DNA from: Macrostomum lignano | Lineage: Eukaryota | Assembly (NCBI GenBank): GCA_002269645.1 | Contig: NIVC01001182.1 | Span: 279,337-343,336, forward strand | Reading direction: 5' to 3' | Length of the DNA stretch: 64,000 nt | In this document: one piece after another, positions 9,496 through 63,964 of the stretch | Numbering within the stretch: the first letter of the stretch is position 1 | Layout of the letters: each line of letters begins with the position of its first letter | Position numbers and translations under genes: made by a program | Notes under the pieces: model-generated | Database searches by the model: none | What the model saw: the letters and a program-made list of their open reading frames with translations, nothing else | Told to the model about the DNA's origin: nothing

Positions 9496-9532
<37 letters not shown>

Positions 9533-9537
9533 GGCAC

Positions 9538-9576
<39 letters not shown>

Positions 9577-9578
9577 GG

Positions 9579-9616
<38 letters not shown>

Positions 9617-9649
9617 CACAGACAGACAGACAGACAGACAGACAGGCAC

Positions 9650-9720
<71 letters not shown>

Positions 9721-9843
9721 GGCAGACAGACAGACAGGCAGACAGACAGACAGGCACACAGACAGACAGGCAGACAGACAGACAGGCACACAGACAGACA
9801 GGCAGACAGACAGACAGGCAGACAGACAGACAGACAGGCAGGC

Positions 9844-9884
<41 letters not shown>

Positions 9885-9917
9885 CACAGACAGACAGACA
9901 GACAGACAGACAGGCAC

Positions 9918-9968
<51 letters not shown>

Positions 9969-9987
9969 GGCACACAGACAGACAGGC

Positions 9988-10032
<45 letters not shown>

Positions 10033-23769: not shown

Positions 23770-26700
23770 TCAGCGACTGTCAAGCCCCACAGTTGAGAAG
23801 TACTTAGCAGCCGATACGGAGATGAACTTGTCAAGAAATACTTCGCTATCCAGCACGGCGATATGAGCGGCCCTGCCAATCAGAGAGTTGGTACTGCTTG
23901 GAAAGCAATGATGAACATCGTAGCGAACAGTTAGCACCTTGGATAGGCGCTGCAACAGGTTTGACACCATCTCCATGTACACTGCGGACATTTGGCCCGT
24001 GTCTTTTAGGGCTCTGCAAATTAGTGAGGGATTATTCGCTTTGGTGTGACTTTGGGATAGAATTATTTGCGACTGGATTAGTGAGGAAATTAGCGAATAA
24101 GGCATCGAGAGAAATGGCAAGACAACTAGCGAGTACAGAATCGATGGGATTAGCCACTAGATTAGTACACAGATTAGTAGAGAATGGAAGAGATTTGTGA
24201 GCAAATTAGTACAGAATTGAGTGGATTAGTGTGCAGACTAGTAACATTATCTACTAATCCCATCGGTTCTCTACTAGTCTGCACACTAATCCCATTGATT
24301 ATCTACTAATCCCATCGGTTCTCGATCAATGGGATTAGTGTGCCGATTAGTAGAGAACCGATGGGATTAGTAGATAATCAATGGGATTAGTAGATAATCA
24401 ATGGGATTAGTGTGCAGATTAGTACAGAATTGATGGGACTAGTGTGCAGATTAGTACAGAATCGATGGTATTAGTGCGCAGATTAGTACAGAATCGATGG
24501 TATTAGTGCGCAGATTAGTACATAATCGATGGGATTAGTGTGCACATTAGTACATAATCGATGGGATTAGTGTGCACATTAGTACATAATCGATGGGATT
24601 AGTGTGCACATTAGTACATAATCGATGGGATTAGTGTGCACATTAGTACATAATCGATGGGATTAGTGTGCACATTAGTACATAATCGATGGGATTAGTG
24701 TGCACATTAGTACATAATCGATGGGATTAGTGTGCACATTAGTACATAATCGATGGGATTAGTGTGCACATTAGTACATAATCGATGGGATTAGTGTGCA
24801 CATTAGTACATAATCGGTGGGATTAGTGTGCAGACAGTACAGAACTAAGTGGATTAGTGTACATATTAGTAGAGAACCGATTATTTTGGTGTGAGATTAG
24901 TTGAGAACCGTTGGAATTAGTAGATAATCAATGGTATAAGTGTGCAGATTAGCAGAGAACCGATGGGATTAGCGAGAAGAGCCGGTGAGAATTGAAAACA
25001 CGAAGCAACAAGCCCTCACCTGGAAGCCAGCTCAACCCGGGAGCTGTGGTAGGGCACATATCGGTCCTGTGGCGAGCTGACCAGCAGTACATTAGCAAAC
25101 GAGTCCAAACCCGATGCGCTACTCAACTCGTACAGATAGGTCTGTCTCGGATCAGAATTGTCTTTCAATTTGAGTTGCAGAATCGAGCCAGACTTCTTCA
25201 TCTTCTGTATAAACCACATGCCAGCATTAACTAGATTAGAAGTGTTATACAGAGCGCCAAGATGAGGCCCGCTCAGGCTTAGGAAGGTGTGAAATTTCGA
25301 ACGCAAATGAGCCAGCCTGGAATCTGACACAGCAGCCCGTATTATAATAGTACCAAGTGAGTGGCCGATGAAGCTAATATGAGTCGGCTGACGAGACGCT
25401 GCGCTCAAGTGCGCTAGCAACTCCTCAACTAGATTGTTCCTCATCTGTTTAATATCAGCATAAGTGTCCAATTGATTACGGTCGGACATTAGAAAGTCAA
25501 ATCGTTCATTAGGCAGAGCCATGGTCAGGTAGACTCGAACTAATCGAAGATCGCCCGAGTTGCCTTCGAGTCCGTGCGCGCAAACAACCAGGTGCCTGCC
25601 CGAGGAGCCGCCTCCGCTACCCAGGTCGGGCAGGTCTCGAAATGGCGGATCTGTAGAAGCCAAAGCTGACAGTCGGAAATCGCTGTACAGATGCAGGATA
25701 GAATCCAACTGAGTCAGCGCCATCTCTCGTTTCATTGCCTCTTTGCGTTGCACATTGGCCAGTGTAGTCTCTGAGAATGCGCTGACCAGCTTGCTGAGCT
25801 TCAGGTCTGACATTGATTTGGCATGGCTCAGGTGCACTGACTGCTGATGGCTGTGCAAACTGCCTGCTGCTGCAGCTGGCGGCGGCGGCGGTGGTGGCAC
25901 ATCGAGGCCCTAGCGAGAATAATGATTTTAAGAAGCATGATTTTCTATGAAATTAATCGCACGTATTTTTGGTAAATGGCATTGTGAAACTTGAAATGGA
26001 ATTTCGAAACTTGAAAATGGCATTCCGAAACTTTAAAATGGCATTCTGAAACTTAGAAATGATACATGTATTCCAAAATTTGGAAATGGCATTTCGAAAC
26101 CTGGTGAAAATGGCATTCCGAAACTTGGAAATGGCATTTCGAAACTTGAAAATGGCATTTTGAAACTTGAAAATGGCATTTCTAAACTTGAAAATGGCAT
26201 TTCTAAACTTGAAAATGGCATTTCGAAACCTGGAAATGACATTTCGAAACTTGAAAATGGCATTTCGAAACTTGAAAATGGCATTTCGAAACTTAAATAT
26301 GGCATTTCAAAACTTGGAAATGGCATTCTAGAAAATTTGATTGAAATCCCAAATATAAAAATGGAATAAAAATAACTCAGAATTGCATGCTACTAATAGT
26401 AGAATAGAAGCAGAAGCAGTAATAAATCAAATGATGACAACAAATGCTAACCCGTTGTTGCTGACGTTGGAATCCGTACAACGCCTCCATCACGGATTCT
26501 TCTCTACCCGAACTTCTAGTAGAACCCGGAGCTGCTGCTCCGCCTCTGCCGCCGCTAACAATCACGTCTGCGTCATCGTCATCACCGTCTCGATCCTGAT
26601 CAGCCAGACAGCCTGTACCGGACAGTTCTCCGCTCCCGCATCCAGAAGCTACTTGGTGCAAGTCTGGCAAACTGCAGGCCGTGCTAAGCGTGCCCAGGCC

Positions 26701-29700
26701 CCGGCCGCTGCCAGCACCGCCGCTGACAGTCAATAAGCTGGCATTGTTAGAACCGGGCCCGGTTAGAGAATCGTGAGCAACGCTAACCCCAGTTGAATTA
26801 GCCGCAGTAGTGGAAGAATCGCCATTAACTAATTTCCTATAGCCAATGAGCTGAGCGTGCTCAGAGTTGGCCTGCTCAGGCGGAGCTTCGTGGCCTGATA
26901 GGCTGCGCAGATTCGAACTCAGGGCCCGCTGAGCAGGCATGCAGGTGATGCGAGGAGGCGGCGGCGGAGGTGGTAGATTCTGACGCTGCTGCTGCTGAGC
27001 TGGAGTCGATGTCGACATTGATGAGGCGCCGGCGGAGGCATTCTGAGATGGCGAACTTGAGCTGCCATCCGTGGCTGATTGTGTCTGCTGGGGGGTTAGG
27101 GGGGGTTTAATTACACTCCGGTAAAGTTTAGGCATTCACAATTAAATACTGATTTAAATATTGAAACGCTTGTGTTGGAATAGAATCCCCGAATTACATG
27201 GAATCATATCTGCAAAAATGACACCAATTAAGCTACAAAAAAGGCATCTAAAGCTACAGAAATGGCATCTTAAGCTACAAAAAAGGCATTTCTAGCTACA
27301 GAAATGGCATCTCAAGCTACAAAAATGGCATCTTAAGCTACAAAAATGGCACAATTAGCTACAATTAGCCTCTAATTAGAAACAATGGACACTTTCTTAC
27401 CTCGAGTCGCGGCTGCTGAGGCGACCCGGTTTCGGCCGCCTGCGGCGCGGGCACAGCCAACGGATCCGGTTCCGGTTGTCCGGAATGCGGCGGATAGACG
27501 TCCTCAAATATCAGAGGCATAGTGGCCGGATCGCCGTCCAATTCCGGACAGTGCAGAGGCAGCTGAGCTAGCTGAGAATAATAAGCCGAAGTGCGGATTA
27601 GCTGGGCCAGACTCTCATAAGGAGACGCGTCCTGCAGTCTGAATAGATCGCCAACCAGCTTCTCAGTGCGAAAGTAGCCTTCGGCGAAACGGCGAACCCG
27701 CATGGCGTGGTACTGCCTGGCGCACTGGTCGATGACCGACTCTTGTAAACAGGCCGTTGATATGAACCGTTCCCATAGCAACTGGAGATCCGTTACTAGG
27801 GCGGTCATGTGACCAGTAGCCAATCGGAGTAGCTCTTCGTCGCCTTGACAAGAGTGAATCTGCTCTGATAGGCTGGCCAGACGGGAAGAGCAGTCCACCT
27901 GGTCTGTGATTGCGATGAGAAATAGAGAACTAGGTGTGTACTTTTGCACAAATAGTACTTGTATGCGCAAAAACTTGATATAAGATTTTTAATTATCAAT
28001 AATCATATTGTACTTTTAACAGATTTTTAGTCATGCTGACACAAGATCTCACGTCTATTTGTTTAAGATCCTAGATCCCAGATCCTAAATCCCAGATCCT
28101 AGATGTCAGATCCTAGATTCTAGATCCCAGATCCCAAAATCCTAGATCCCAGATCCTACATCCCATATCCTAGATAACAGATAACAGGTCCCAGATCCCA
28201 GATCCCGAAATCCTAGATCCCAGATCCCAAAATCCTAGATCCCAGATCCCAAATTCCTAGATCCCAGATCATAAATCCCAGATTGTAGATCCTAGATCCC
28301 AGATCCTACATGTAGATCATAGATCCCAAATCCTATATCCCTGATCCTAAATCCCAGATCTCAGATCCTTGATCCCAGATTCCATATTTTCTAGCTCCTA
28401 GATCCTAGATCTAGCACAATGATATCAGATAATGATTTAATTAACAACACTAAAGCATGCTATTATGATTTTAGTTACTAACCTTGTAGATAATAAAAAT
28501 CATTGAAAAAAGCATTTCATTATACGTTAAGTCAACTACACAGAACAGATACAGTAAATATCTGTAGATATTGAAACAATAATAACCATGCTCAAAAAAT
28601 AAACTTAATAGTAGAACTACAATACATCGTAAGCAATTTGTTAGATGTTAGTAATAAAAATAATCACAGTAAAAACTGAAATATGTTCTAAACTATCAAT
28701 CAGACAATACTGAGTTAAGAGATGCATTAACACAATTTATGCTTATCATTTAAAACAGAGAACTACACCTAGTAAAGGCAAACTAGACAAGACGATTAGA
28801 TCTTCAAAATATATATATACATGTATAATATAGGAAGCGGTGAAGAAAAGAAAATGCGATGCTCTATTAAAAAGTGCAAGTTTTATCCGAGAAAAGCCGC
28901 ATATCATTTCAACTGACTCCTATTCGGCTATTCGGACACCTAACTCTGCACTGATTCAGTTCACCCAGCTGTAAAATGGGTGCCAGCAAATTAGCTGGGG
29001 TAATTGAGGGTGTGCGTGGGCGACAGCAAAAACTGGTGTGCACAAAATTATAAAAAGAATCTGCTTCAAATATTTAATAAATAGATTACGTGTACATACT
29101 ACATGTTATACATTTATTGTTATATAAATAACTTACTCTCTCGTTTGACAAGTTTGCGTATGTTTTTATCTGTTACCGGCAGTTACAAGTGGGTTAATTG
29201 GATAGGGGAGTGGGAGATGAATATGATATATGATATTTATGGCATTTATATATTAATAAAAATATGCCACAGTTTTATAGTCAACAGTCCTCGATAACCA
29301 ACTTTTTATAAAGTAAAAAAACTACTAAAACTCATAATGAATGTTACCGATTGCAGACTTACCCAGTTGCATCTGCTGCATTGGCGGCAGCAGGTCGATG
29401 GCCTGTTTAAGGCTGGCCTGCAAAGACTCGTAGGCTGATAGTAGTAAATGGCAGACATTGTTGTGCACTGTTAGCACAAGCTTGCGGCGCTGTTGGACTG
29501 ACTGGAAGTTCGGGGATGGAAAGGAACGGGACTGAATTAATTGGTGTTGGATAGCATAGACATGGATTTGGCTCTAGGAGGAACTGCGAGGCTGTGTCCC
29601 TGCAACTGAGGATCTGGGAGGCTGGTGGCCCTGCAACTGACGATCTGGGAGGCTGGTGGCCCTGCAACTGAGGATCTGGGAGGCTGTGTCCCTGCAACTG

Positions 29701-48100: not shown

Positions 48101-49017
48101 AATTAGCTGTCTGAAGCACAAAAAATTAATTTCTTTGAAACATTAAATTCATTCTCATATGTTCTGCAATTCATTAAAGATATATATGTAGCAACTTAAA
48201 CATTCAGTTGATACTTTCCACCTTTGGATGCATATAGCTACTAACAAGAAAAAAGACAAAAGAAAAAACTTAATTGCCATTGATGCTGGCAATGTAATAT
48301 TAAATATGGTACAGAAAGATGGAATCTCTACAGAGTGCTGCCACACGAATTTGTGAAGTGTTTAACAGATTAGTCATGGCAGTACCATAACAGACATACT
48401 ATATTTTATATTACTCTTCGATTGACAATTACGCTTTAGATATGTTTTAGATGATGATTTTCCATTGGGACTGACTCTATATACCGAGGCCAGACACAGT
48501 TAAGTGCGGCTGACAGCACTGAAGCGGCGGTTAACAGAGAATGCGATGAGCTGTGGCCTGTGGAGACAGCCAGCTGATGTACGAGCATCAGTAAAAGGGA
48601 AAGACATCCAATAGTGTCTTGCTATTGGTTTGTTACATGTACAGCGAACATCTACTTTTATTCTAATGTGATCGATTTAATTCTACTGACCCAATTGGCT
48701 AAAGCACTGTAAACTGCACACCTCTCGGACGGATATGTAATGCCATTTGCTGCACTTTTACCTGTTTCTCTGCCAGAACACCAGCATCATTGTATGTGCC
48801 ACAATGCTAATGAAATATTTTAAAATATATGTTATTGTTCTTCTTCTGGTCTCTCACTTCTATGGCTCTTGTTCTACTTCAAATATCAATGTGAGAGCCA
48901 AATAACTGAGGCGGCGGATTCAACTGACTTTTCCTGATGATGCAAACACTTGATGGTAACTTACAGACCGTTGTATTTGATGGTCACAATCTCGAGATGT
49001 TTTCTCACAAAATATAA

Positions 49018-49463
49018 TGTCTAAGGTGGAATTCCAAATAAGAAGCTCGTTCGATTTAAGTCACAAGGTGTTTCTAGTTGTTCGGGTGAACCGAAGGTTC
49101 AGTCTATTGTGAAACGTGGATTGGGTGTTGGTTTGGCTTTAGTAAGTCGACTTATAAGTTTTGGTGTTTGGGTTGAGACCCTAACTGTGTCAATCAAAAT
49201 AGTCAAACGAGGTAAGCTAGGAGAATGGCGAAGGAGAGGCAAGGGCGCGGAGAGGCGGAGCGAGCAGAAAAAGGGGCGAGCTTCTTGCTTGGTTAACATG
49301 AGCTTTTATAGTACTTTTCAGTCTTGATCGCATTGGATGGTACATAACTGCTTTTCATTGGTTGAGGTTGGGGTCGTGTCCTCAGCTTTTGCTATTTGGA
49401 GCGCATTCATTGGTTAAAATACATTCAATCTGGATGGGAGCTTTCTAGAGCCAAAATGTATCA
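49018..49463 (-). promoter_or_regulatory. Putative 3' LTR (U3 with three CCAAT boxes and a TATA box)
   Basis: The minus strand begins TGATAC at 49463, directly after a purine-rich tract. CCAAT at 49409-49413, 49357-49361 and 49332-49336; TATAAAA at 49304-49310. The CA end is ambiguous (candidates near 49018, 49068, 49079, 49107). No second LTR copy in the window. Confidence 0.55.
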
Positions 49464-49481
49464 CTTCATTCGCTCCATTTT
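49464..49481 (-). other. Putative polypurine tract
   Basis: Minus strand AAAATGGAGCGAATGAAG abuts the TG of the putative LTR. Confidence 0.45.
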
Positions 49482-50926
49482 TCGGGGAAGCGAGGCCCTC
49501 CGAGCGCATAAAAACAGAAAAAGAATAGTAGGGGGTTAAAATTGATAAAATTGCAGAAAAAGATAACGCATTGTAGTGAACGAGAAAAGTTGTCGCAGAA
49601 AAAATAGTGCGCAGTGAATAATGTTAGCAAAAATGTTTGAGTAAAAGGGAACCAATTTAAGCAAGGTAACATAGGTTAAAGTACAACATCAGTTTAAATA
49701 GCGAAAGAAGGGATAGCGCAGAGGGCCTTTAGTTAGGCTAAGCTAAACTAGCTAAGCAAGGATGGAATAAAACGCAGCGAGGGTAACCAAAAAATCGATA
49801 AAATGGGTGTACAGAGCAAAATGGAGGTTTAGCGACGCAAGCTTAAAGTGAAAACGCGGTGAGTTAAAAGGAGGGTAATAAAAATCATTGTACATCGAAA
49901 GTTGGGGGGGGGGTTAGCGAGGAACCGCTCAGCTAATAAATCATGTACAAAGTAGAGGTTAAAATTTTAACTGGGGAAACGAAAAAGATAAAAATTCTAG
50001 GAAAAATTGTACAGTCCAAAGGGGGTATATAACACAAGGCTTTAAAATGGAGCAAGGCGAGTTAAGCGATTTTTTGACTGACGGTTAATAATCAAGTAAA
50101 TTCGATTCATCATGAGCACAAGGAAGAACTTGCGGTTTTTGCTAGGCGACTTAGCAAAGCGGTCCCAAGATGATTGGGACCTTGGCGACAGGCGGTGGGC
50201 GATCACGCTCGTCCTTCTCGCTGTGCTGGGAGTGCTGGTGCTGCTGCTGCTGCTGTGCCAATGTTGCCGTTGCTGTCGTTGTTGTCGGCGCAACTGCTGC
50301 AGGTCGGGCGCGCCTGGAGCGTCGACTGCGGTAGCAGATGTGGAGGCGCCGCCAGCGGAGTCGGTGGTGTAAGAGCCGAGCTGCTTTGCTGGTTCGTCCG
50401 GCCTTCTGAACGCAACAACGGCCCTTTTTAGGGCCACCACTTGATGTGATGCCGAAGTTGTCAGATAAGCAGACTGTGCAGTCATGAAGGAACAAACGTT
50501 GTTGAGCCGTATGCTTTAGTGCTAGTTGGTTGACTTAGGTGAAAGCAGCGCCAGGGACAGAGCGATTTGCAGAGACCAGGCATAGTGTAGGGCGATGGCT
50601 GCGTAGATCAAGGTTGTGGCTTGAATCCGGTTGAAGCAGCGCCAGAGACAGCAATTGGCAGTGACCAGGCACAGAGCAGCAGTCGTGTAGGTCAGGGTTG
50701 GGCAGGGTTGAGCAGGGTTGAGCAGGGTTGAGCAGGGTTGAGCAGGCTAGCGCGTGATGACTTTTGAAAAAGCAGTTGACAGAATAACAGAGAAAAATAG
50801 CGTAAGCTTTACACAAGTGAGCGCAAAAGAGCGGAGGAGTAATAGGCAGAAGAACGGAAAATATTTTTTGAGTATTTTTGAACAATTTTTGTAGTGTTTC
50901 AGCGCCAATATTGAAGAAAAAGCGGA

Positions 50927-51883
50927 TTAAAATAGTGAGCGATGATGGTGAATCAAGTCATAAAAAAGAGCGTATGCCAGTCGAGCAAAATTAATATTAG
51001 GATCAGAAGGCGGAGAATGCTGAATACGCTTGATGAAGAAGGTATGAAGAGTGGCGTACTCTGGCAAGGTGTTAGGATAGCCAACAAGAGCATTTCGTAT
51101 ACGGTGAATATCGTATAAATATCGACGAAGGGGAGGACAAGAGAAAGGAAAAATAGTATGGGCAACTACCGAGCGAGAATAAAAATCGATAATTATAAAA
51201 GCAAAGTTTCTTGAACGCGTGGAGAGAATGAAAACAGCGTGGGTGAAGAAAAAATTGTGCGGATACAAACGATTGAGTGTGCGTATCATAGCTTTCTTAG
51301 TAGCACGAGGAGAAAATGGAGGAAAAATTTGATAAACATAAGGGGCGAGAGAATCGAAAGAGGTTAAATAATTTTGTAGCGTAAAAGTTAACTGTTGCGC
51401 CGAAAGATTAGCAGCATCATGGCGGAATTGTTGCCATGGGTAGCGCAGAGAGGAAAGCAACAAAGGCCAAGTGTCTTGGTTAAAGCGTAGGCATGATTGA
51501 GGGAGAGTAGAAGCAGAGAGTTGAAAGAAATCGTCGATAGACATATTAGGAGAAAAAAGAAAATGTAGGATTGGTACGAAGCTGCGGTTGAGAACGTCAG
51601 TCATAGTGGGAGAAAAGTTCTGTATACGTGGTCGTGAGTGAGTACGACGCAGCACACCAAATAGACTAATTCGCAGAACGCGGAGCATCTTAGGATAAAA
51701 GCGATGGCAGCGGATAACATAAAAACGAGAGAAGAAAGCGGAGGCCATGCGTAGCCGTTGGGGTTCACCAATAGTTTCAGAATAAAATATTGCTTCAGTG
51801 AACCAAGCAACAACGGTTGCGAGGCAAATAAGATCATGATTTAACTGTGGTCGGATATCCACTGGTTGCGGAAATGGATCCAT
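50927..51883 (-). CDS. Accessory ORF of the retroelement, 318 aa, unknown function
   Basis: Uninterrupted ORF from ATG 51883 (MDPFPQPVDIR), between integrase and the 3' LTR; non-repetitive; no recognised motif. Confidence 0.6.
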   Translation of the reverse strand: MDPFPQPVDIRPQLNHDLICLATVVAWFTEAIFYSETIGEPQRLRMASAFFSRFYVIRCHRFYPKMLRVLRISLFGVLRRTHSRPRIQNFSPTMTDVLNRSFVPILHFLFSPNMSIDDFFQLSASTLPQSCLRFNQDTWPLLLSSLRYPWQQFRHDAANLSAQQLTFTLQNYLTSFDSLAPYVYQIFPPFSPRATKKAMIRTLNRLYPHNFFFTHAVFILSTRSRNFAFIIIDFYSRSVVAHTIFPFSCPPLRRYLYDIHRIRNALVGYPNTLPEYATLHTFFIKRIQHSPPSDPNINFARLAYALFYDLIHHHRSLF

Positions 51884-52187: not shown

Positions 52188-55100
52188 TCACGACTTCTTG
52201 TTCTTCGATCGTAGGTTGTAGCCGTGCGTCTGTGGCTGACCTGGTGGCTCATCAGTGGACGTGGTTTGCAGCGCGATGGACTTGCTCAATGGCGGCCGAT
52301 GGTTGTGGTGGACCTGAATGTCATCAGTTGTGAACTCAGGTAGGTGACTAGGTCCAGCGCTGAGTCCATCTCCAGGCCATGGTTTGAGCTTGGAGGCATG
52401 TACCACGATTGGTCGTTCGCTTGGCCGGTTGACATCGGAAATCAGTGCGTTCTGATCGGAGAGCCATGCTAGTAGACGCATTGGGCCACGATAAGGATTG
52501 GAGAATTTTGTCTCCTTCGTTGCTGAGACATCCAAATAGCATCGTGCACCCGGGCGTATGTAGCGGCTGTTGGTCTTCTTATCAGAGTTTTCAGCGCGCT
52601 GTTCAGCTGAGTTGTGCAGAAGTTCCTTGGCGACTTCTCTGGCAAGCAAAATAGCTGAACAGGTCAAATTGACTGGTTTAATAACGTCCATGTATGCAGT
52701 TGTCTGGTGTTCCATGATCCGTGCGTTGGGTGGCAGGAAATCTCGAGCGAAGAACAAGTAGAATGGTGATTCATTCATCGTTGAGTGTGCGGCGGTATTG
52801 ATTGCTAGTGTCACCGCGGGTAGGAAGTCAATCCAGAGATCTGGTTTGTCATGGACAAAGGCCGTAAGGGTTTGCTTCAGTGTCTTGTGTGCGCGTTCGA
52901 CGAAGTTGCTGGATGGTTGGTACACCGAGGTGTAGATTAGATGGATTCCAAGGGCACCCATAAACTCTCGAAATTCTTGCGAGATGAATTGGGGTCCGTT
53001 ATCTGAGATGATGTGTGCTGGTAGTCCTGCGAAGGCGAACACACGGTTGAAGAGACTGTTGCAGATGGTTGCAGAAGTTGTCTCAGTTAGCGGGATTGTG
53101 AACAGGAATTTGCTAACGCCGCATTGGGCTGTGAGTATGTACTTGTAGACGTCGCGGCCGTGTGAAGCTGGTGGCAGTGGACCTACAAGGTCGATAGCCA
53201 AATGAGAGAAAACCTCGTTGAATTTGACGGCTTTGTGCAGCGGTCGCAGTCGAGGTGCTGTTTTCGCTTTGTGGCAGATTTCGCAGTTGTTAATGAAATT
53301 GAAGACGTCTTGCCGTAGTGTAGGCCAGTAGTAGAAATGACTGATTTTGTCTGCTGTCTTTTGGTGACCTAGATGACCACCAAGGGCTGTCGAGTGGTTA
53401 CTGTCAAAAGAGCTTCACGGTAGCGTGTTGGTATCACGAGGCGGCTTCGTCCTTCGTCATCTTCAAAGTATAGAGTGTTTCCGTCCAGGAAATAACGTGC
53501 CAGGTGTCGGCGAACATATTGTTGGTCTTTCTTGGACAGCTCGTGAGTGGGTGATTTTTCCGATAGAAGTGCTTTGATTGTTGACAGTAATGGGTCTTGA
53601 TCAATGGCATCCTGCAGTCCGTTGAATGTTGACAGCGATTGTATCTGACAGACTTTGGGGATGCGTGAAAGGCAGTCCGCTACTACGTTTGATTTGCCTT
53701 TCACATAGTTGAGAGTGAAGTTGTAATCTTGTAGCGCTAGAATCCACTTCTGAAGTCGTTTTGAGATAGGTTGCTTGTCACTGAATAGACTCTTGAGTGG
53801 CTGGTGATCAGTGAAGACGTGGAATTGTTGGTAAGAGGCGTAGAGGAACACGTGTAGCTTCTTTATTGCCCAATAGATGGCGTATGCTTCGCGTTCAATC
53901 GGTGGATAGCGTTGTTCGGTTGGACTTAACGTCTTAGAAATGTAGGCAACCGGGCGTTGGTGGTTGCTGTCGTCTAGCTGTGAGAGTACTGCTCCAATGG
54001 CGGTATCCGAAGCATCAGTGTGCAGAAAGTACGGTTTTCGCGGATTTGGATGAACCAGTAGTATATCCGTAGAGAGAAGTTGTTTCAGCTTTTCAAAGGC
54101 TGCTTGGGCGGCGTTTGTCCAGACGAATTTGTTAGGCTTCGAAGTATTTTTGATGATACTCAGAAGTGGTTGTACTACTCGTGAGTAGCCAGCAATGTGC
54201 GTTCGGTAGAAATTTGCAAGTCCAAGGAAAGATTGTAGTTGTTTAACCGTTTGAGGCACAGGGAAGGTCTTGATTTTCTCGATGAGGCTGGGTGCGGGTC
54301 TAATGCCTTGAGCAGAAACCACAAATCCAAGATATTGTACCTCTGTTTTGGCAAAGATGCATTTTCGTAGTGAAATTCGCAATCCATGATGTCGTAACTT
54401 TTGGAAGAAGCGTTCGATTTCTTTGAGCATGCCGGTGAAGTCTTCGGCGATGAGCATGACGTCATCCAAGTAGGCAATCTGATTTGGAGAGTCAGCTGTT
54501 AACAATGCTACAAGACGGCACATTAAGCTAGGACTGGACTTGAGTCCTTGAGGTAGTCGATTGAATTCCCAAAGTAGGCCGTTGGGTGCAATGAACGCAG
54601 TGTATTTTGTGCTTTCTGGATCGATCCGAACTTGGTAGAAAGCATCTGCTAGGTCACAGAGTGTGTACAGTTTAGCGTTTTTCAATCGATGTAGCAAATC
54701 CGGAATCTTAGGAGGTCGGATGCTAGGAGCACGAATTAGCTTGTTCAGTTTTCGGTAATCCGTCACGAGTCTTAGTTGTCGGCGACCTTGAGCGTCGAGC
54801 GTCTTCTTTTCCACGAGAAGACATGGACTTGAGTATTCCGATTCACTCGGACTGATGATTCCTTTTTGACGGAAGTTTTCGATGAGCTCATCAAACCGTT
54901 CTTGTAGTCCATGAGCGATTGGATAGGGTCTGGACGTGACTGGCTCAGAGTGTGGGTGTAGATGCAGGTGAGCCGTGTATTGGGTAGAGCAACCCATGTC
55001 GGTTGGCAGTAGTGCCAAGACGTCACGGTACTTGTTCATTAGAGTAACTAATTGTTCACTCTGCTCGGTTGAGAGGTGCTGGTTGGCTTGTTTGAGTTGA

Positions 55101-56245
55101 GTACGGATCATGTCAGTCGTAGGTGCTTCTTGTTGCAGCGTGCGGAGACTGTTGATTTGAGCTGCTGGGCGCACGATGTTGTAGTCAGACATGTTAGCCA
55201 GATTTCCAATGACTTGTTGAGGATGCAAGGTTTGCGTTGTCAGCGACGGGTTGGCAATTTCCACAGTGATAGTTTGTCCGTCCGGCTTGACAGAAACAAG
55301 GCAAGTTGGTATCATCAACTGGTGTTTCTGGATCGTGTGGTCCTTAGGGACGAACAGGACAGGAATCGTTGGCTCATGTCGAGAAGAGAGTTTCAGCGTG
55401 ACTTGGTGCGTTGTCTGTGGTGGTAACTCTAGCTTGTTTTGCATCACCGCAGAGGTTTCTTGCAACTGTTGGATGGAGTTGAGCATCGCAAATTGCTCAT
55501 TGCCAAGCTTAGCTGTCGCTTTCGAGTAGTCGAATTGTAGTGGTATTCCCAGTGACTTAAAGGTTTCTACTCCTAAGAGCAAATCATAGTCAGCGTCGGG
55601 GGTGTCGAGCACAAAGGCCGATATCTTGTGGTTGCGTCCATCGATTTCGAGATCAAAAGTAGCCTTTTTGTTGAGGTTTAGTTGTTGTCCTCCTGCACAA
55701 ATGGCGTTCATGTTGGTGTCTTGTAATGGTACTCGAAGCTTTTTGGCGAATGCCGGTGAGATGCAGGAGATCGAGGCGCCGCTGTCAATGAGGGCGGTGC
55801 ATCTGTGTCGAGTATGCGGTGCGTTGCGGCACCACAGGTTGATCATAGTTGCTGTTGTTAGATGCTTCAAAACAAAGGCGTATGAGTAGTTTGCTGGCCA
55901 TTTTGGAACTTTAGGTTCTGGCGGTGGTCTCCGTGGTGGCGGAAGGGTGGCACGAAGTTCAATCGTTTCGATGGGTGCCGAGGGTGTTGGCGCTTGTCTC
56001 GGTGGTATCAGTTGCTGTTGTTGGGAGTAGTCGTTTCGTGATTCCACTCGAGTTGGAGTTCGTTGTTGCCGCAGCACTTGTATAGTGTGCGTTCTGCCGT
56101 ACGGATGGTGCTGGCGACGCAGAGTCGGCCAAGATTGCACACGAAGATAATAACGGCAATGTAGACGATTACAGCTGCTGTTAAGACGAACTTTTCTTGA
56201 TAGTTTGCGACTAGTCGATCCCAGTTGAATATCGACGAAGACCAT
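52188..56245 (-). CDS. pol: Pol: aspartic protease, reverse transcriptase, RNase H, integrase (one 1-nt frameshift near 53400)
   Basis: ALIDSGAS (PR); RLVTDYRKLN, DLADAFYQV, LPQGLKSSP, AYLDDVML (RT); LHTDASDTAIGAVL, EREAYAI, TDHQPL, VADCLSR (RH). After the shift: HSTALGGHLGHQKT...YYWP...CEIC (HHCC), AIDLVGP, ISDNGPQF, VERAHKTLK (DDE), PYRGP, terminal GYNLRS. Confidence 0.93.
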
Positions 56246-58810
56246 AGATTGAGAGAGCTAGTTTTGAGTCCAGGAATGCACTGTCAGCATGTGCTGTTCT
56301 ATGTCGTGTTCGATTCGGAAGTTTGAAAACCGTAATCAGAAAATCACGAGTTTGCATGAACTGGTGCATTAGGTCGGTCACCGTTATCGGACTACGAAGT
56401 GAAGTATAATTGATATCTCCCATAGGTTTGAAGATGCTTTCGGAGACTGAAGTTTGCAAATCGGACAACCGATAGTTTTCATCGGATCTGACATTAGCGG
56501 TTGTGGGTTCAAATCTCGAAAAATTTAGTGTGGTCTTGAATAGCATCGATTGTTTAGGCAGGTAGTAGTATGGGAAGGCGTCGCATGAGATTAGAGCTGG
56601 AGTAGCTGTGGAGACAATACGAGTCGTTGTGTCCAAAAATCCAAGAACAGTATAATTTTGTAGGCGGAATTCCAGTGGGGGGCGCGTGAAGCATTGGTTC
56701 GTCTTGTACTTTGGTTGGACAAAGCGGAACTGATGTAGGGGTTTGCACTGGTAGACGAAGAGGTATCCAGCAATGGATCTAGCTCGCAGAAAGGATCATT
56801 TAATAAGAGTCGAGCAGCGAGCGTTGGTTGTGTGTAGTATAACTGTCGTTGTACTTGAGATTAGTTGCATACATCATGCATTGAGTAGTTGCAAGCTGTT
56901 TCTGTACTTGGAGAAGGTCTTTTCGAGCTTTACTAGCAGCTCCTTGTAGTTGTCCAGCAAGAAGTTCAGCGGATGCGAACGTTGATGAAAGTTGCGCAGT
57001 AGAGTTGCCTGAAGGGGCTGCGATGGTTTTGTCGTCTGTGCTTCGCTTGTTGCGTGGTAGTAGTAGGAGATCCGGTTGACTGCCTTGTGGTTCGTGATGT
57101 GGAACTGCTAGATTCGTGTGAATAGAAGCCAGTTGTGGATTGGTTGTTGTCGCTGGTGAGTTCGTGGTGAGGGTTGAGGTTGCAGACTTTGCTGGTGCAC
57201 TGGTTGTGCTGCTAGAGGTTGAGGTTGTTGGCGGTAAGGTGGTGGTACGAGGTTGTGTCGTCACTTTTGTAGTCGTCGTAGTTGAATCTGCTGTCGTTGT
57301 TGCTGCTGAGGTTGTAGCAGTGGTGGTTGTTGAAGTTGTCGGTGTTACGGTTGTGGTAGGTATTGTTGTCGTTGTAGTCGGTGGCATTGTCGTCGTAGCT
57401 GGTGGTGTTGTCGTTGTAGTCGGTGGTGTTGTCGTTGTAGTCGGTGGTGTTGTCGTTGTAGTCGGTGGTGTTGTCGTTGTAGTCGGTGGTGTTGTCGTTG
57501 TCAAAATTGTAGTTGTTGGTGTTGATTTTGTAGTAGTTAGTATCGTAGTTGTTGGCGTCATTGTTGTAGAAGTGCTTGACGTCGGTGGATGATCAGGTCG
57601 CTCTTGTCGTAAAGGTTGCGGCGGTAGGAATTGTCGTGACTGAGTTGTCGTAGTGAAAGGATGTTGAGTCGTCGATTGCTGAACGGGTAATATTGTTGGT
57701 GGCGTTGGTAGTATCGCTGGTGGTGAACGACGTTTTTGTCTCGAAGAAGTGGTTTCTTCGCTAGTTTGAGGTTTTGGAGTAGCTTCTTCTAATGGGCTTC
57801 GTAAGGTGGCGAGAAATTCTGCTTCTTTGTTGTCGAGGATGTCTACGTATAGACCTTGCGTTGAAAGGTACAACGTCTTACGGACGCCAGTGCAGGTGAG
57901 AGTGTGAGTCGACGGCACTGGGTTGAAGGTTAGTCCCAATGTTTGATCATTAGTTAAGAACAAGCCGGAGTTTAAGTTGCCTTCAAGAGTACGAAATGGT
58001 TTTAAAGGACAATCAGCGAGTGGTGGAGGTGTCCAAATAAGATTTAGATGTCTTGGTCCTTTCACGTCAATTTGGTAGATTGCTTCAGTTTCCAAAGGAT
58101 CCCAGGGGGATGTTAGTATCGGCAAAGGTAGGTTGAAAGCTCGCATTTCTTGTGCAGTTGTTTTAATTGTACAAAATTTGTCGGCGAGTTTGCAGTTGTC
58201 CATTGGGAAGGACAAAGATTCCATTTTTTGATCTGCTGTTGAGTAGGCTGGGATTCCGGTGATCACTGTTGTTACTATTTGTTCTGAATGTGAACCAGGA
58301 GTGCAACGCACAGCATTTTGCGTGTTGAATGTCGATTGCAGGCGTTGGATAGACTGAGTTGACGCAGTCTTTAACACTAATGATCCATCAGGCGATAGCT
58401 TTGTTCGTGCCCAGTTTTCACAATCAGCTTGAGTGACTGGTTGCGGTTCCAACTCTACCAGGGCGGATGTCCAGGTTCTTATCACCGCCTTATCACATCT
58501 GATAGTGATTTTCTCGCGGAAACAGACAGTCATAACCAGAGAACTGGTTTCCACGTTCGTTGTGTAAAGTTCCAGTTTCAACGGGAGTGTCGGCGTCGTT
58601 TGGTGTTTGAGCTGTTCACAACGGATCTCATGTGGTATCGTGAAAATTCGTGGGATCTGGTTGTACGGACAGACCATTGGTGTGTCAATGAAGCCCTCGT
58701 GAGATTGTCTCTCAATCGATGGTGGAGTTGACGTCGTTATCGGCGTAGCGTTGGCTAGTGCGAAGAGTGAAGTTGCTAGGCACAGGAGAAAAAGTGTCAG
58801 TAGTGATCGG
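56137..58810 (-). CDS. env: Env-like class III fusion glycoprotein (herpes gB / chuvirus-G-like), in frame with Gag; broken by single-base deletions
   Basis: Signal-like SLLTLFLLCLATSLFALANA (about 58747-58806), Cys-rich ectodomain, RQKRR and RNKR sites. Across two 1-nt gaps (about 56826 and 56790) the sequence reads NPTLAARLLLNDP-LRARSIAGYLFVYQCKPL...QCFTRPPLEF, resembling the gB motifs NPT...AR..GDV..V..C and CYSRP. TM segment FVLTAAVIVYIAVIIFVC at 56137-56190 lies in a third frame. Confidence 0.75.
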
Positions 58811-60657
58811 CGAATTCCGACGGAAGCTTTCACGGTTTTCTCGCGGTTGTTGTTGCTGGTCGGTGGAGTGTAGGCGTTTGTCACTCTTTCAACCGTACAA
58901 AGGCGAATAGAGTTGATAGTCGCAGCGGCAGTAGTCGGTTTTTTGAGTAAAGATTTCAGCTGCTTAGCGTCTCCAGAGTAGCGAATTTCGTTTCCAAAAG
59001 TCGGTGGGCGTTCATCAACTGTAGCAATGTGCATCAGTTGGGCAGACTCGGGAGCGTCGTGAGTCGTCCATCCAATCTGCGGCTGTTGATTCCATCCTGG
59101 GTGGGACGTTTCAGGGTCCTGAGCAGTGATGGCGCGTATCGGTGGATATTGTTGTTGCGCAAATCTCGGAGGTTGTCGTTGATTGTTGGTGCCGTTGTAT
59201 CGAGGCGGATAGCGTTGCTGAGGCCGGTTTCCATAGTCTTGACGGGGTGGAAATCGTGATTGTTGTGTCGCCGGTGGACCGTAGCCTTGTGTACGTTGGG
59301 CTCGTAGTCGGCACTGGTTAATAGAGTGTCCTGGTTTTCGGCAATAGTTACAGGTCAATCGTGGCGGTCCCTGCTGGTAACGATTTCGCGGGGCATCAGA
59401 GCCGTATTGGGCTGTGTTCCTTCGATCACTTGAGTTAGGTCGGAAGGGACGAGGTTGTTGGTCATTCCTTCGACGACAGTCGGCGGCATAGTGTCCAGGT
59501 CGACCGCAATGATAACAAGTGGGCTTCTGTTGCATATTAGCGATAGGTGGCTTGGTTTGTGTTTGCAGGGAGGCAACCACCTGCTGATTGGCTTCCTTCG
59601 TCGTTTTTTCTAAGGTAGTTAGACGCTCTGTGAGAGCTTTCAAGTCAGTGCCATCAGAGTCCATGGTGGAGTCGCGGATTTGTTCGGCGCGGATGGCCTT
59701 GTTGATTAGCGTACTTTCCGTGGTGATATTTTGCTTCAAGAGTTCTCGTTTGATGTAGGGTAGAGCATTGTTGATAGTCGTAGCCATCAGGGTAGCAAGG
59801 AAGTCTCGGTTGCGCTGGTCGATGACAGCTTGGTTCGCGGGTGGTGTTTCCGGACCGGCACCTTCCGGAAATTCTTCCGGTATTTCCGGCATAGCTGACC
59901 TGAGCTTTCGACGAATATCGGTGAAATAAGACAGGAACGGTTCGCCGTACTGTTGTTTCCGGGTTGTTGCATTATGCAGCGTTAGAGCCGAGCCAATGGT
60001 TACTTCCCGAAGGCGTTGAGACAGTGCCTCAATGGTGGCTGGATAAGAGGCTTGGACTGCGGCAGAGAGGCGACTGTATTCGAGTTTAAGAAGGTCATTC
60101 AGTAGTCGCGGGAAGAGCCGAATCTTTGCGTTCTCCGATAGTCCAAAGGAGCGTGTGATCAAGTCGAACTCTTCAGTGAAGGAGCGGAAGTCATGCATTT
60201 GGTCGATTCCTTTCAGGGATTGACGAATTTCAGCAAGAGCAGTAGCTGAGACGGGATGGTTTGATTGCAATTGCAGACTGCGGTTCATAACGTCAGTAAG
60301 TTCACGGACAGCATTTGTCGCTGCAGCATCAACATGGGGAGCGCCGTCCTGATCAGCCATATCTAGAGTAGATTCTTCAGCAATATCGTTTGGGGCTGGT
60401 TGAACTGTTTCGTCCGCGTCTGTTAGGATGGAGCTGGGTGCTGGTGAGTGTGCACGGTTGTGTTCAAAATGATCCGCGAGAGGGTTATTAAACTCAACGT
60501 TATTTGGTATAAACAGGTTAGGTACTGGTGAACTATTTCGTGGGAGCTGTTCACCTATTTGGCAGTCAGAAGTTTCTAAATTTTGTTCAGGGGGTCTGTT
60601 AATATTTGAGCTTTGAAAAACTGGTCCGGAACGTAAATCTCGGACAGGTGTGGTCAT
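58810..60657 (-). CDS. gag: Gag region of the retroelement polyprotein (capsid-like plus 2 zinc knuckles)
   Basis: First ATG at 60657 (MTTPVRDLRSG). Capsid-like segment FRSFTEEFDLITRSFGLSENAKIRLFPRLL; knuckles CYHCGRPGHYAADC and CNYCRKPGHSINQC; continues without a stop into the env-like region (ORF 56800-60717). Confidence 0.88.
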
Positions 60658-61691
60658 TAACAAGAATTCAATCAATAATTTCAAGGCAACGATAGCACAA
60701 AATGTAACTAATAGCAAAGTAGAGTGTCAAATTCAAAGTGAGCAAACGGCAATGGCTTTCAGGGTTGCGGTTGGCGGACTGGCTGGGGAAGGGAGAAAAA
60801 GAGAGACTGTGTAATTTTTTAACTGTGATCTGCGACGAGCTTTGAAAATCGAAGTAATTTTGAATTGAACTGCCTTTTGATTGGTTCTGAAACTTTGAAT
60901 TTTGAAATTTTGAACTCGGAAATCTTGAATTGAACTGCCGTTTGATCGGTTCTGAAACTTTGAAACTGAATTTGATAAAGGAGCTCCTGAATGTTGGACT
61001 AGACGGACATCAGTGGTGGCCAATAAAATCGAATTTGTATCATTGAAGTCGGCAGTTTTCTTTTTCTTGAAGTCGGCAGTTTAGTCTTTTGAAGTCGGCA
61101 GTTTTCTTCTGAGAATTTGTTCTGGCTTTTTGAATTTCGAATTTGAATTTTGAACTATCTGACGAGTTTCAGCTAGGGGGGTTGATTTCATAATTTTAAG
61201 CAAGCGTAGAGTAATGTTTTTGTAGTTTTGTAAATTTGCTATTTTTTAATTTTTGAAAATTTTATAATTTTTATTGATCGGACTGATCATTTTGTAACTT
61301 TAACATGATAAGAGCAGTACGGGTTGTACGAAATGAACTATAAGCAATGGTATTGTTTTTTGTGTTTTCAAGTTTTATTATTTTTTTTTGCGATCTAATG
61401 ATCATTTTGAGTTTGTCGCAGGCTACGAAAATACTATGTGAATAGTCTAGCATAGATGAAGCGAAGAAGAGTAAATGGAGACGTGCGTTTTTTGAGGTTT
61501 TAAATTTTTTATATTTTTTGTCGATCAAATGATCATTTTCAAAGTAGTGTTTACACCATGCAGTTTAAAGTAACAGAAGGTGAGCTGGAAATGAGACTAC
61601 GATCAAAAGACAATGAGAGAGTATAGTATATTTACAGGGCCCAAGGGGGCTGATGCTGAGGCGATAGAAATTGCGGCTTATGGGGGGGGAA

Positions 61692-62500
61692 TCACTCAGG
61701 GCGACCACCGTATGCGGAGGCGAGAAGTTTGGGGCAAGGAGAGTCGCTAACGTCAAAACAGGGGTCGTCGGTAAAGTCGGGGTGGCCAACTATATGTTCC
61801 CGGTGGAACCGAGGGAGGGTGAGGAAATGAGCTTCAATGGCCTGACCTCTAGAACTGCCGCGATGGCGCGTCCAGGTCGACCAGAAGTGGTAGCGGAGTT
61901 GGTAAGAGGCAAGGTGGAACAGGCTTAAGGGTGAGTCGGAAACGGGGGGAACAAAGCTCTGGAGCAATAGTTCGTGGCGTTCACACTCCTCGTCATCAAT
62001 TTTGCGACAGTATATTCGGCGGAGATCTTTGTAGCGAAGAGGAACGCCGGTATGAAAATCAACGCAACGCAGAGCGCGGAAGAGTAGCTCGAAGTCCTGG
62101 CCTCGGAGGGCTATATCGACGATTGCGGACTTAAAAGCTCCTTGCAGGGGCGGCAGATGGAGGCCTTCGAGATGGAATAGCATATTGTCTATCTGCCCCG
62201 GGATGTGGCATTGGAGGCAGTCATAAATGTGGGTCAGGTAGGAATCAGTAATGGTGAGGACAAACTTGGTTACGGGACCAGGGCGTCCATTACAACTGAA
62301 GAGATCGTGAAACAGGGAATCCGGGATTGCGGGCTTGACGGTACGAGGAAACGGAAAGGGCGAGAGATAGGAGGGGTGATAGTAAATGAAACTGCGGCGA
62401 TGTTGGCAATAATACGTCTGACACTGGCAATCAAATAGTGGGACATCATCGGGGCAGTAAGGGATGCGGCTTCAGCGTAGATACGTGCGAAAGTAGTCAT
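61692..62500 (-). CDS. Accessory ORF upstream of gag, about 269 aa if one 1-nt deletion near 62273 is restored
   Basis: ORF 62270-62500 (MTTFARIY...DALVP) joins a stop-free frame (VTKFVLTITDSYLTHIYDCLQCHIPG...) that runs into ORF 61692-62183. Confidence 0.45.
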
Positions 62501-62891
62501 GTTGAAATTATAATAAGTGAATTAAAGTACTTTAATTTAATTTACAGTGTTACCAAGTTGCTGGAACGGTAGAGACTGGATGTGAAGAGTGTCGTTCTTG
62601 CAGTTGGCTTCGGTAGTACTGGAGAGGAGATTAACTCAAGAGTGCAGGATTCTGTCAATCTATAGTGCTGCAAAAGTGCTAGTATAATAGTGCTGTTGAT
62701 GGCGAATTCTGAAGGGAGTTGGGAACGGAGTTTGCGGCGTCCTCATTGGTTGGTTAGGGGGATTCCAAGCCATGCCTGGGAGACGGGGCGGTTATATTGG
62801 TGAAACTGAAGGGGGACGGGTAAGGCTTGCTACTCCTTCGCGACTCCGCTACTTCAAACACTCCCGGACGACGATTGCTCGACTATTTATT

Positions 62892-63173
62892 ATGGCTATG
62901 CAAGCTCAACTCGAAAGGACGAGGAAGACGGCAGATCAATGGTGGTGGCTCTGTCGGCGGTTGTGGGAGCTCGAATTGCTGCTGGAGGACGGCTGGCCCC
63001 GCGACACGAAGCGGGGTGCTCGGCGGGGTTCGCGACTCCTGTCAGCGTTCAGGCGGCTAGTCACACCCGTCCGTAAGTGGTGTGAGCGCCGCCTCGAATG
63101 GTGGCAGGAGCTCCAGCACGTGGAAGAAGAGATTGTAGCGGGACGCCGATGGGGTAATTTTATCCTAGTTTAA
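62892..63173 (+). CDS. Antisense Trp-rich small ORF (93 aa from ATG 62892), unknown function
   Basis: MAMQAQLERT...; nine Trp; followed by an AT-rich spacer (63175-63370). Confidence 0.35.
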   Translation: MAMQAQLERTRKTADQWWWLCRRLWELELLLEDGWPRDTKRGARRGSRLLSAFRRLVTPVRKWCERRLEWWQELQHVEEEIVAGRRWGNFILV

Positions 63174-63371
63174 TGTAATGGAAGGGGCTAACCGACTGAA
63201 GGTAGGGGTAATCTTGAGTTTAATTTTTTGTAATTTTGTATAGTTTTTGTAGATATGCTAACAACAATTGAATTACTTATTAGTGTACATATATTTATAT
63301 TGTTATTGTTGCGATTACCCTTTTGTACGTGTGAATGTTTTTGTAAAAAAATACATAACTAACCTGTTTAA

Positions 63372-63964
63372 CTATTTGAATTGATAAAGGCTGCTCAGGT
63401 TAGAGGGGGGGCTATGGGTAGGGCTCAATCTTGACAAAGCAAAGGATGGATAGCGTAACAAGATGGTTAACAAAATAAGTAGGGCAAAAGCTGTATGGGG
63501 CACTAAGCATCTATTGCCTTTGGCAATAGGGAGATGAGAGAAAAGTAGAAGTTGTTTGGATCTTAATCCATCATACAAAAACGAGAAATGGCTAGGAAAA
63601 GAAAAAATTCCTGGGGAAATTGTTTATCAGAGATCGTGAAAAGGTCGCTGAACCGGAGGGTGAGTGGCAGGATGGAGCTGGCCTGGACAGTTTGATTAAG
63701 GAAAAGATTTTTTGTGGGAGATAAAAGTTGAGTGATGGTTTTAATCAAGAAAAGAGGTCGCTCTGGAGGTCGAGTAGGCACACAAAGTCTGATGTGGGCA
63801 GTTTGTTTAAGATTAATATTTATTGGAGGGAACTGGAGTTGATTAAACACGCAAGAAATTCCCAGCATCCCGAATGATCCATAGAAGGCAACTGCCAGAA
63901 TCAGCAATCCGAAAAAAAAACTTGGGTCGATAAGGATTTGATGGATGGGCTCGTGGGTTTGCAA
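63372..63964 (-). CDS. Putative membrane protein ORF (about 197 aa, one 1-nt shift near 63575)
   Basis: ORFs 63563-63964 and 63372-63578 overlap at a T-run. Hydrophobic stretches FFFGLLILAVAFYGSFGMLGISCVF and AFALLILLTILL. No ATG at the start, so the start is uncertain. Confidence 0.3.

Follow-up and report, generated by a model that had tools for sequence, protein, structure and literature searches.

The stretch considered here, hereafter the window, is 64,000 nucleotides of Macrostomum lignano DNA (NCBI GenBank assembly GCA_002269645.1, contig NIVC01001182.1, positions 279,337 to 343,336). At 52188-60657, its minus strand holds the coding sequence for a Ty3/gypsy long terminal repeat (LTR) element in which an envelope (Env) segment lies between Gag and Pol. 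The order along the minus strand is Gag with two CCHC knuckles, an internal signal, a class III glycoprotein B (gB)-like ectodomain, a transmembrane (TM) segment, and then protease, reverse transcriptase, RNase H and integrase (PR-RT-RH-IN). The same order had been claimed in an earlier note made from the letters alone, and it is borne out by Pfam domains, a stop-free passage from Gag to the ectodomain and the TM segment at 56190-56137. The parts of the element, from its 5' to its 3' side, are as follows:

59311-60657, minus strand: Gag with two CCHC knuckles (59520-59473 and 59352-59311); ATG at 60657
58804-59310, minus strand: Gag-Env linker, open, with no stop and no conserved recoding signal
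58747-58803, minus strand: predicted internal signal sequence, with a basic flank, a hydrophobic core and small residues before the predicted cut
57742-58746, minus strand: Env N-terminal half, with a predicted fusion domain and its neighbours, rich in beta strands; 10 Cys; predicted local distance difference test (pLDDT) mostly 65-94 over residues 11-280
57043-57741, minus strand: Thr/Pro-rich mucin-like loop of ~224 aa with 21-nt repeats, disordered in the model
57741-57727 (RQKRR) and 57054-57043 (RNKR), minus strand: furin-like sequence motifs flanking the mucin-like loop
56191-57042, minus strand: Env C-terminal half, modelled as a long central helix (model residues 572-618) and a beta crown of class III type; holds the frame breaks near 56845, 56787 and 56250
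56137-56190, minus strand: Env TM anchor, called from sequence; mean hydropathy (Kyte-Doolittle) 2.7 across 19 aa of a sister copy
55808-56136, minus strand: predicted cytosolic tail or linker from the Env TM to the protease, ~110 aa; frame break near 56100 in the window copy
55556-55807, minus strand: aspartic protease (LIDSGA); PF13975, E 1.5e-7
54320-54805, minus strand: reverse transcriptase (YLDD); PF00078, E 4e-24
53723-54121, minus strand: RNase H of Ty3/gypsy type; PF17917, E 2e-36, and PF17919, E 4e-35
52188-53414, minus strand: integrase and polyprotein stop (52188); H2C2 at 53402-53259 and rve core at 53210-52914, Pfam E 3e-15 and 4e-13
48811-49468, minus strand: 3' LTR of 658 nt with TGAA...TTCA ends; purine tract at 49469-49483 directly upstream

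The first Gag knuckle matches PF00098 (zf-CCHC) at E 9e-8, and no Gag capsid domain is recognised by Pfam. The Gag frame is stop-free for 1,308 codons and runs through the hydrophobic segment into the Cys-rich region. The genome contains 23 matches to the junction of Env and protease at 95-100% identity, the window copy included. From the 22 other genomic places, 20 were taken as the copy set; all of them align to the window across the fetched span, and Env is found at the identical position in 20/20.

The 3' boundary of the element at 48811 is sharp in 13 other copies. An LTR search inside the 64-kb window found none, and no pair is present because the contig stops at 64000, short of the 5' LTR, which in other copies is placed ~930 nt beyond that position. 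A full copy is ~16.9 kb long, or ~14.8 kb when an optional 2.1-kb 5' segment is absent, with LTRs of 653-658 nt across the family. The two LTRs agree at every position (653/653) in 3/3 single copies inspected, and 4-nt target duplications border the element; the family's insertions are recent. A primer-binding site (PBS), which matches the 3' ends of host tRNA-Glu, follows the 5' LTR in 5/5 junctions seen, and a polypurine tract (PPT) precedes the 3' LTR. The hallmarks of Metaviridae are thus present, namely paired TG...CA LTRs, target duplication, PBS and PPT, and a gypsy-type PR-RT-RH-IN by Pfam.

The identification of the inserted segment as a fusogen, also claimed in the note, is upheld by several kinds of comparison. 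PF24664 (Monjiviricetes_fusion) is matched by 4/7 aligned Env relatives at E 5e-8 to 5e-5. A profile of these relatives matched eight PDB sequences, all of them herpesvirus gB; the best match, at E 1.6e-12, is that of the Env C-terminal half to residues 437-589 of Epstein-Barr virus (EBV) gB. A model of Env from an unbroken natural copy (AlphaFold2, 833 aa, 9 sequences) matches herpes simplex virus (HSV) gB in Foldseek at E 1.7e-13, and in VIA it aligns with HSV gB over 394 residues at Z 10.7. In BFVD, it retrieves nyamivirus, rhabdo-like and herpesvirus glycoproteins, with Nyavirus G at rank 2 (E 1.5e-16). By these matches, Env belongs to the class III fusogens; the high root-mean-square deviation of the gB alignment (8.7) restricts any finer claim.

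The mucin-like insert sits just before the central helix, and the aligned EBV gB likewise has a low-complexity loop there. It is at that loop that gB is cut by furin. The insert varies between 644 and 960 nt from anchor to anchor over 21 copies, and its length is a multiple of three in 13/21. The mucin-like loop is present in two of five families and a furin motif at the same loop in all five, these being the window family and four sister families from the same genome.

The selection acting on Env was estimated as omega among the copies by rough counting of shared variants. Values of ~0.076 (N-terminal half) and 0.067 were obtained for the two large Env segments, and 0.20 for a 60-codon Env segment; PR-RT-RH gave 0.046, integrase 0.062, Gag 0.17 and the Gag-Env linker 0.34. 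Env is thus under purifying selection like Pol (omega ~0.07). The window family is young and has been active recently.

The sister families provide the direct view of a single reading frame. The Env N-terminal half has at least 133 matches in the genome (130 of 200 candidates scored) and the reverse transcriptase at least 151 (150 of 3,526 candidates scored). At 17 or more places, a single open frame, 2,370-2,866 aa long, holds Env upstream of the reverse transcriptase, with reverse transcriptase identity to the window copy of 33-81%; the closest sister has a frame of 2,859 aa and is 81% identical. Four sister frames were fetched, chosen for length, and all four carry CCHC, signal, ectodomain, furin motif, TM, PR, RT and IN, Pfam having been run on two of the four whole frames. 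Judged by these sequences, the group normally has a single open reading frame (ORF). The same genome holds four or more other Gag-Env-Pol families.

The topology was assessed by hydropathy and charge, which also gave the signal and TM calls. In 5/5 families, the net charge is +3 to +5 before the first hydrophobic core and -1 to +1 after it; likewise in 5/5, it is 0 before the Env TM and +2 to +5 directly after, with 107-128 aa then leading to the protease motif. Under the positive-inside rule, this pattern points to a cytosolic Gag, a luminal Env and a cytosolic Pol, in agreement with the cytosol-lumen-cytosol topology first proposed. N-glycan sequons are also enriched in the ectodomain of the four sister families (0.9-1.0 versus 0.5-0.6 per 100 aa), in support of this topology.

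From these features, we infer the following course of processing and particle formation. One mRNA would give one polyprotein, of which Gag would be translated in the cytosol; the internal signal would then direct the ectodomain into the lumen of the endoplasmic reticulum, and the TM would halt transfer, so that PR-RT-RH-IN stay cytosolic. Signal peptidase would split Gag from Env. The note had Gag set free at this step; however, signal peptidase is known to cleave after the hydrophobic core, and the hydrophobic segment would therefore remain as a C-terminal anchor, holding Gag at the membrane until a second cut. Pol would stay attached to the Env tail until the protease acts. Env trimerisation and Gag assembly may crowd the tails at the membrane and favour protease dimerisation, and the core proteins could then be freed during budding by the element's protease (or, for Gag, by signal peptide peptidase). 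Furin would cut on both sides of the mucin-like loop, so that the fusogen is primed and the loop possibly leaves as a glycopeptide. An enveloped particle passing between cells would result.

Taken together, the best explanation, which we consider quite probable, is a recently active element of the Ty3/gypsy group that carries a class III Env of gB type, in frame with Gag before it and the protease after it, and whose polyprotein is processed in this way. Several observations weigh against it. The window family's own Env ectodomain has no Pfam match, and all Atlas leads for its Env are below the threshold (<0.9). The Env model is modest (pLDDT 58, predicted template modelling score 0.36), and the Env cleavage sites come from motifs only. 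The sequons of the window family's ectodomain are not enriched (0.59 versus 0.59 per 100 aa). Further, an unbroken whole frame is seen in 0/16 of the copies covered over the full coding span; along with some indels common to 4-6 of 20 copies, this is the ground for regarding the family as dead, as discussed below.

The strongest competing account accepts the same single ORF and holds that its 1:1:1 product is not used as such: splicing, early termination or selective decay would yield an excess of Gag, or an Env-less Gag-Pol for intracellular transposition. Splicing in copia and decay in Tf1 are routes of this kind. The fixed Gag:Env:Pol stoichiometry proposed in the note could thus be altered by splicing or selective decay. 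It is well established that a capsid requires Gag in large excess over Pol and Env. The long 5' region (~4.3 kb between LTR and ATG in window-type copies) also fits such a scheme, as does the 3' accessory ORF described below, which needs some subgenomic route of expression. The search for recoding signals speaks on the other side, as a 2A motif is found in none of the five families and no slippery heptamer between the CCHC and the signal is shared across them; any Gag excess must hence come from splicing or decay. This account has a substantial chance of being right, somewhat short of even.

It is rather unlikely, in our view, that Env is kept and membrane-inserted yet forms no free infectious particle, serving instead to anchor assembly at internal membranes or to pass between cells. 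Selection on Env does mean function and not infectivity, and Chary and Hayashi (2026; PMC13524379) call the transmission mode of gB-type elements unknown. Nevertheless, an anchor would need less than what 5/5 families have, namely a complete class III ectodomain, conserved cysteines and, at the same loop, a furin motif.

The frame breaks bear on a further reading, in which the breaks are true mutations and the family is dead, its copies decaying. Five breaks had been predicted in the window copy, and five exist, near 56845, 56787, 56250, 56100 and 53400, though two of the predicted positions (56826 and 56130) were off by 20-30 nt. Break by break, 19/20, 19/20, 13/20, 17/20 and 13/17 other copies differ in length from the window copy in one and the same way. 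The five tested spans are open in 16/20, 15/20, 13/20 (56400-56150), 12/20 (TM-PR) and 9/17 (RH-IN) copies, the others having breaks of their own, and the passage from Gag to the signal is open in 13/20. Private changes among the copies, counted outside the Thr-rich part, comprise 140 substitutions and 125 frameshifting indels, 99 of which are deletions. The ratio of indels to substitutions is thus near 1 and 79% of the frameshifting indels are deletions; among the 20 copies, nonsense changes are absent from Gag, Env and PR-RT-RH, with one in integrase. Owing to the deletion-rich indels and this near absence of nonsense changes, errors of long-read assembly are preferred over decay as the most likely source of the five window-copy breaks. 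The identical LTR pairs and at least 10 unbroken Env N-terminal halves of 97-100% identity also argue against a dead family, which is improbable despite the absence of an unbroken copy and the shared indels. As to the single polyprotein of about 2,820 aa that had been proposed, its junctions are open in many copies and uninterrupted ORFs are seen in the sister families; in the window family as assembled, the longest natural frame is 2,086 aa (one copy, from Gag into the reverse transcriptase). We therefore infer the ~2,820-aa frame for the window family, the direct observation being that of the sisters.

A one-off nested insertion of the glycoprotein segment, or a misassembly of it, can be dismissed. 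Nothing was found in favour of either, and alignment places the segment in every copy of the set; it recurs in at least four sister families (reverse transcriptase identity 33-81%) and in individual proteins that the databases hold from other sources.

Two accessory parts flank the polyprotein:

61417-63500, minus strand: optional 2.1-kb 5' segment with an accessory ORF (61692-62471 here; a 276-aa frame in 4 other copies)
50927-51883, minus strand: 3' accessory ORF of 318 aa from its ATG, between pol and the 3' LTR

The 3' ORF is open across 307-318 aa at 14 genome places with 92-100% identity, and its omega is ~0.43 (121 codons). Its relatives are limited to its own family and ~70%-identical fragments; it has no Pfam or Atlas match, and its single-sequence model has a pLDDT of 41. 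A resemblance to integrase, seen by eye, was rejected, as BLASTP against the element's integrase gave only E 0.67, and comparison with the 5' accessory ORF (BLASTP E 0.33) showed no relationship. The 5' ORF likewise has no Pfam match. Its segment is missing from at least 7 copies, in which the match resumes at query 2584-2593. Relatives of the segment with 68-77% identity occur as clustered fragments on contigs C87, C2121 and C1130, along with DNA matches on C1176 and C1753. A 157-codon open frame at 50042-50515 (minus strand), in the stretch that separates the 3' accessory ORF from the LTR, overlaps a Cys/Leu-rich frame of the opposite strand.

Other observations concern the surroundings of the element and its copies. 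A fourth locus (C172:389068-418129) consists of two tandem elements with a common middle LTR; 18 sites set its first LTR apart from the other two, and there is no target duplication at the outer flanks. Recombination between two insertions would produce such a structure, as would an assembly join. A first look at the genome gave 320 LTR candidates against 23 internal regions, and this excess suggests many solo LTRs. The DNA below 48811 (to at least 47500) is another high-copy repeat that hosts the element, with at least 23 copies of 96-100% identity starting exactly at the junction. Outside the element and this repeat, the window consists of host DNA that is rich in repeats and whose genes are split. 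Of 24 sequencing runs listed, 20 contain the stretch, none of them recorded as RNA. Host exons with introns filled by tandem repeats lie at 8564-14547 and 25016-27988 (both minus strand); we take them to encode, respectively, an SH3-repeat coiled-coil intersectin-like protein and a lipase-like FAM135-type protein. A public gene model of 3,187 aa (P0001), in which parts of the element are spliced to a laminin gene, is a prediction artefact. When the Env N-terminal half was compared with long proteins by a word-index search, the sole match was a chimeric gene model of this element.

Beyond the M. lignano genome, PF24664 occurs in 8 of the 120 long reverse transcriptase relatives listed, and in 8/8 it precedes the reverse transcriptase. 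The Env profile matches 19/127 fetched proteins; among the 14 with a reverse transcriptase motif, Env comes before it in 13 and after it in one. In P0078, a related Env is located after Pol. P0079, P0082, P0087 and P0115, which come from other sources, are each a single protein, 2,694-3,243 aa in length; in three of them PF24664 precedes the reverse transcriptase and extra hydrophobic segments follow integrase, possibly a second membrane protein or a second Env. A reverse transcriptase tree was made by a quick method with 61 rows and no named reference clades; P0052 was removed because it covered too little, and the majority of the multi-copy pseudoscorpion gene models were left out. It places the five Macrostomum families and P0015 on one side of a branch (Shimodaira-Hasegawa-like approximate likelihood ratio test 98), the other Env-first proteins being unresolved.

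The note gave env after pol as the known placement in retroviruses, errantiviruses and env-bearing Bel/Pao elements, and thereby implied novelty, though it did not claim that the order was unreported; the literature does not support such a restriction. Arkhipova and Yushenova (2019; PMC6431247) describe an in-frame env between gag and pol in the planarian Burro/GYPSM1 giant gypsy elements. The window family shares with Burro this in-frame env between gag and PR. Burro, however, has an ORF1 of 4,873 aa, MATH, BIR, BCL2 and ankyrin cargo and a size above 30 kb, whereas the window family measures 14.8-16.9 kb, has an ORF of ~2,820 aa and shows no MATH, BIR, BCL2 or ankyrin Pfam match at E 0.1. 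PMC13524379 reports GAG-ENV-POL 'errantiviruses' of HSV/gB type in Nematoda, Bryozoa and Platyhelminthes, M. lignano included, with one element (Mlig_errantivirus_2) and 93 Pol and 51 Env ENV-POL regions tallied for the species; it credits Sacco 2022 for nematodes, with env and pol flipped. The window family resembles this class in its Ty3/gypsy Pol, its gB-type Env between a signal/TM segment and a TM, its gag-env-pol order, its multiple copies and its LTRs. Compared by listed features, it is distinct from Mlig_errantivirus_2, because LTR length, size and PBS differ (864-nt LTRs, 10.6 kb and another PBS, against 653-658 nt, 14.8-16.9 kb and tRNA-Glu); the latter may be one of the sister families. 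In the parts searched, PMC13524379 and PMC6431247 offer no model of polyprotein processing and no mention of a mucin loop, and PMC12801592, on M. lignano LTR families, has no mention of envelope, glycoprotein or ORF. A processing model for any Gag-Env-Pol element was not found in the literature searched.

The nematode non-canonical endogenous retroviruses of Sacco et al. 2022 (J Gen Virol 103:1739) are said to have one continuous gag-env-pro-pol ORF, a nyamivirus-like Env and extra ORFs, and to be restricted to nematodes; the second-ranked Nyavirus G match of the window family's Env recalls this likeness. Env-bearing Bel/Pao elements differ, as no Pao Pfam family is matched here and Env precedes PR instead of following integrase.

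The layout is thus not new and, being in print, is of little surprise to a specialist. The family itself is new. Its copies measure 14.8-16.9 kb, with LTRs that are identical within a copy and tRNA-Glu as the primer, and they carry two accessory ORFs as well as topology signals that are conserved. As features of the family, the accessory ORFs and the length-variable mucin loop, enclosed by a furin motif on either side, are absent from the texts searched. What remains of value is how a polyprotein that passes the membrane twice becomes a particle and how a Gag excess arises, since the literature, in the parts searched, gives the gene order and no such account. Transgenesis is possible in M. lignano (PMC5730564), and with several young Gag-Env-Pol families it is a good place to observe such processing.

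For the polyprotein, the note drew an analogy to the alphavirus structural polyprotein. The alphavirus capsid, however, cleaves itself free, and the capsid-signal-envelope-non-structural polyprotein of hepaciviruses and flaviviruses is the closer parallel. As a functional analogy only, these viruses likewise have a cytosolic capsid, an internal signal, a luminal envelope, a TM and cytosolic enzymes in one ORF, with the capsid anchored after signal peptidase cleavage; they differ in lacking homology, in having class II or other fusogens and in replicating as RNA. A bolder and rather doubtful reading would make the family a living 'complex' errantivirus that assembles in a hepacivirus-like manner, with Gag and Pol membrane-anchored on either side of the fusogen and budding together with it, a mucin peptide of variable length shed by double furin cleavage, and two accessory proteins.

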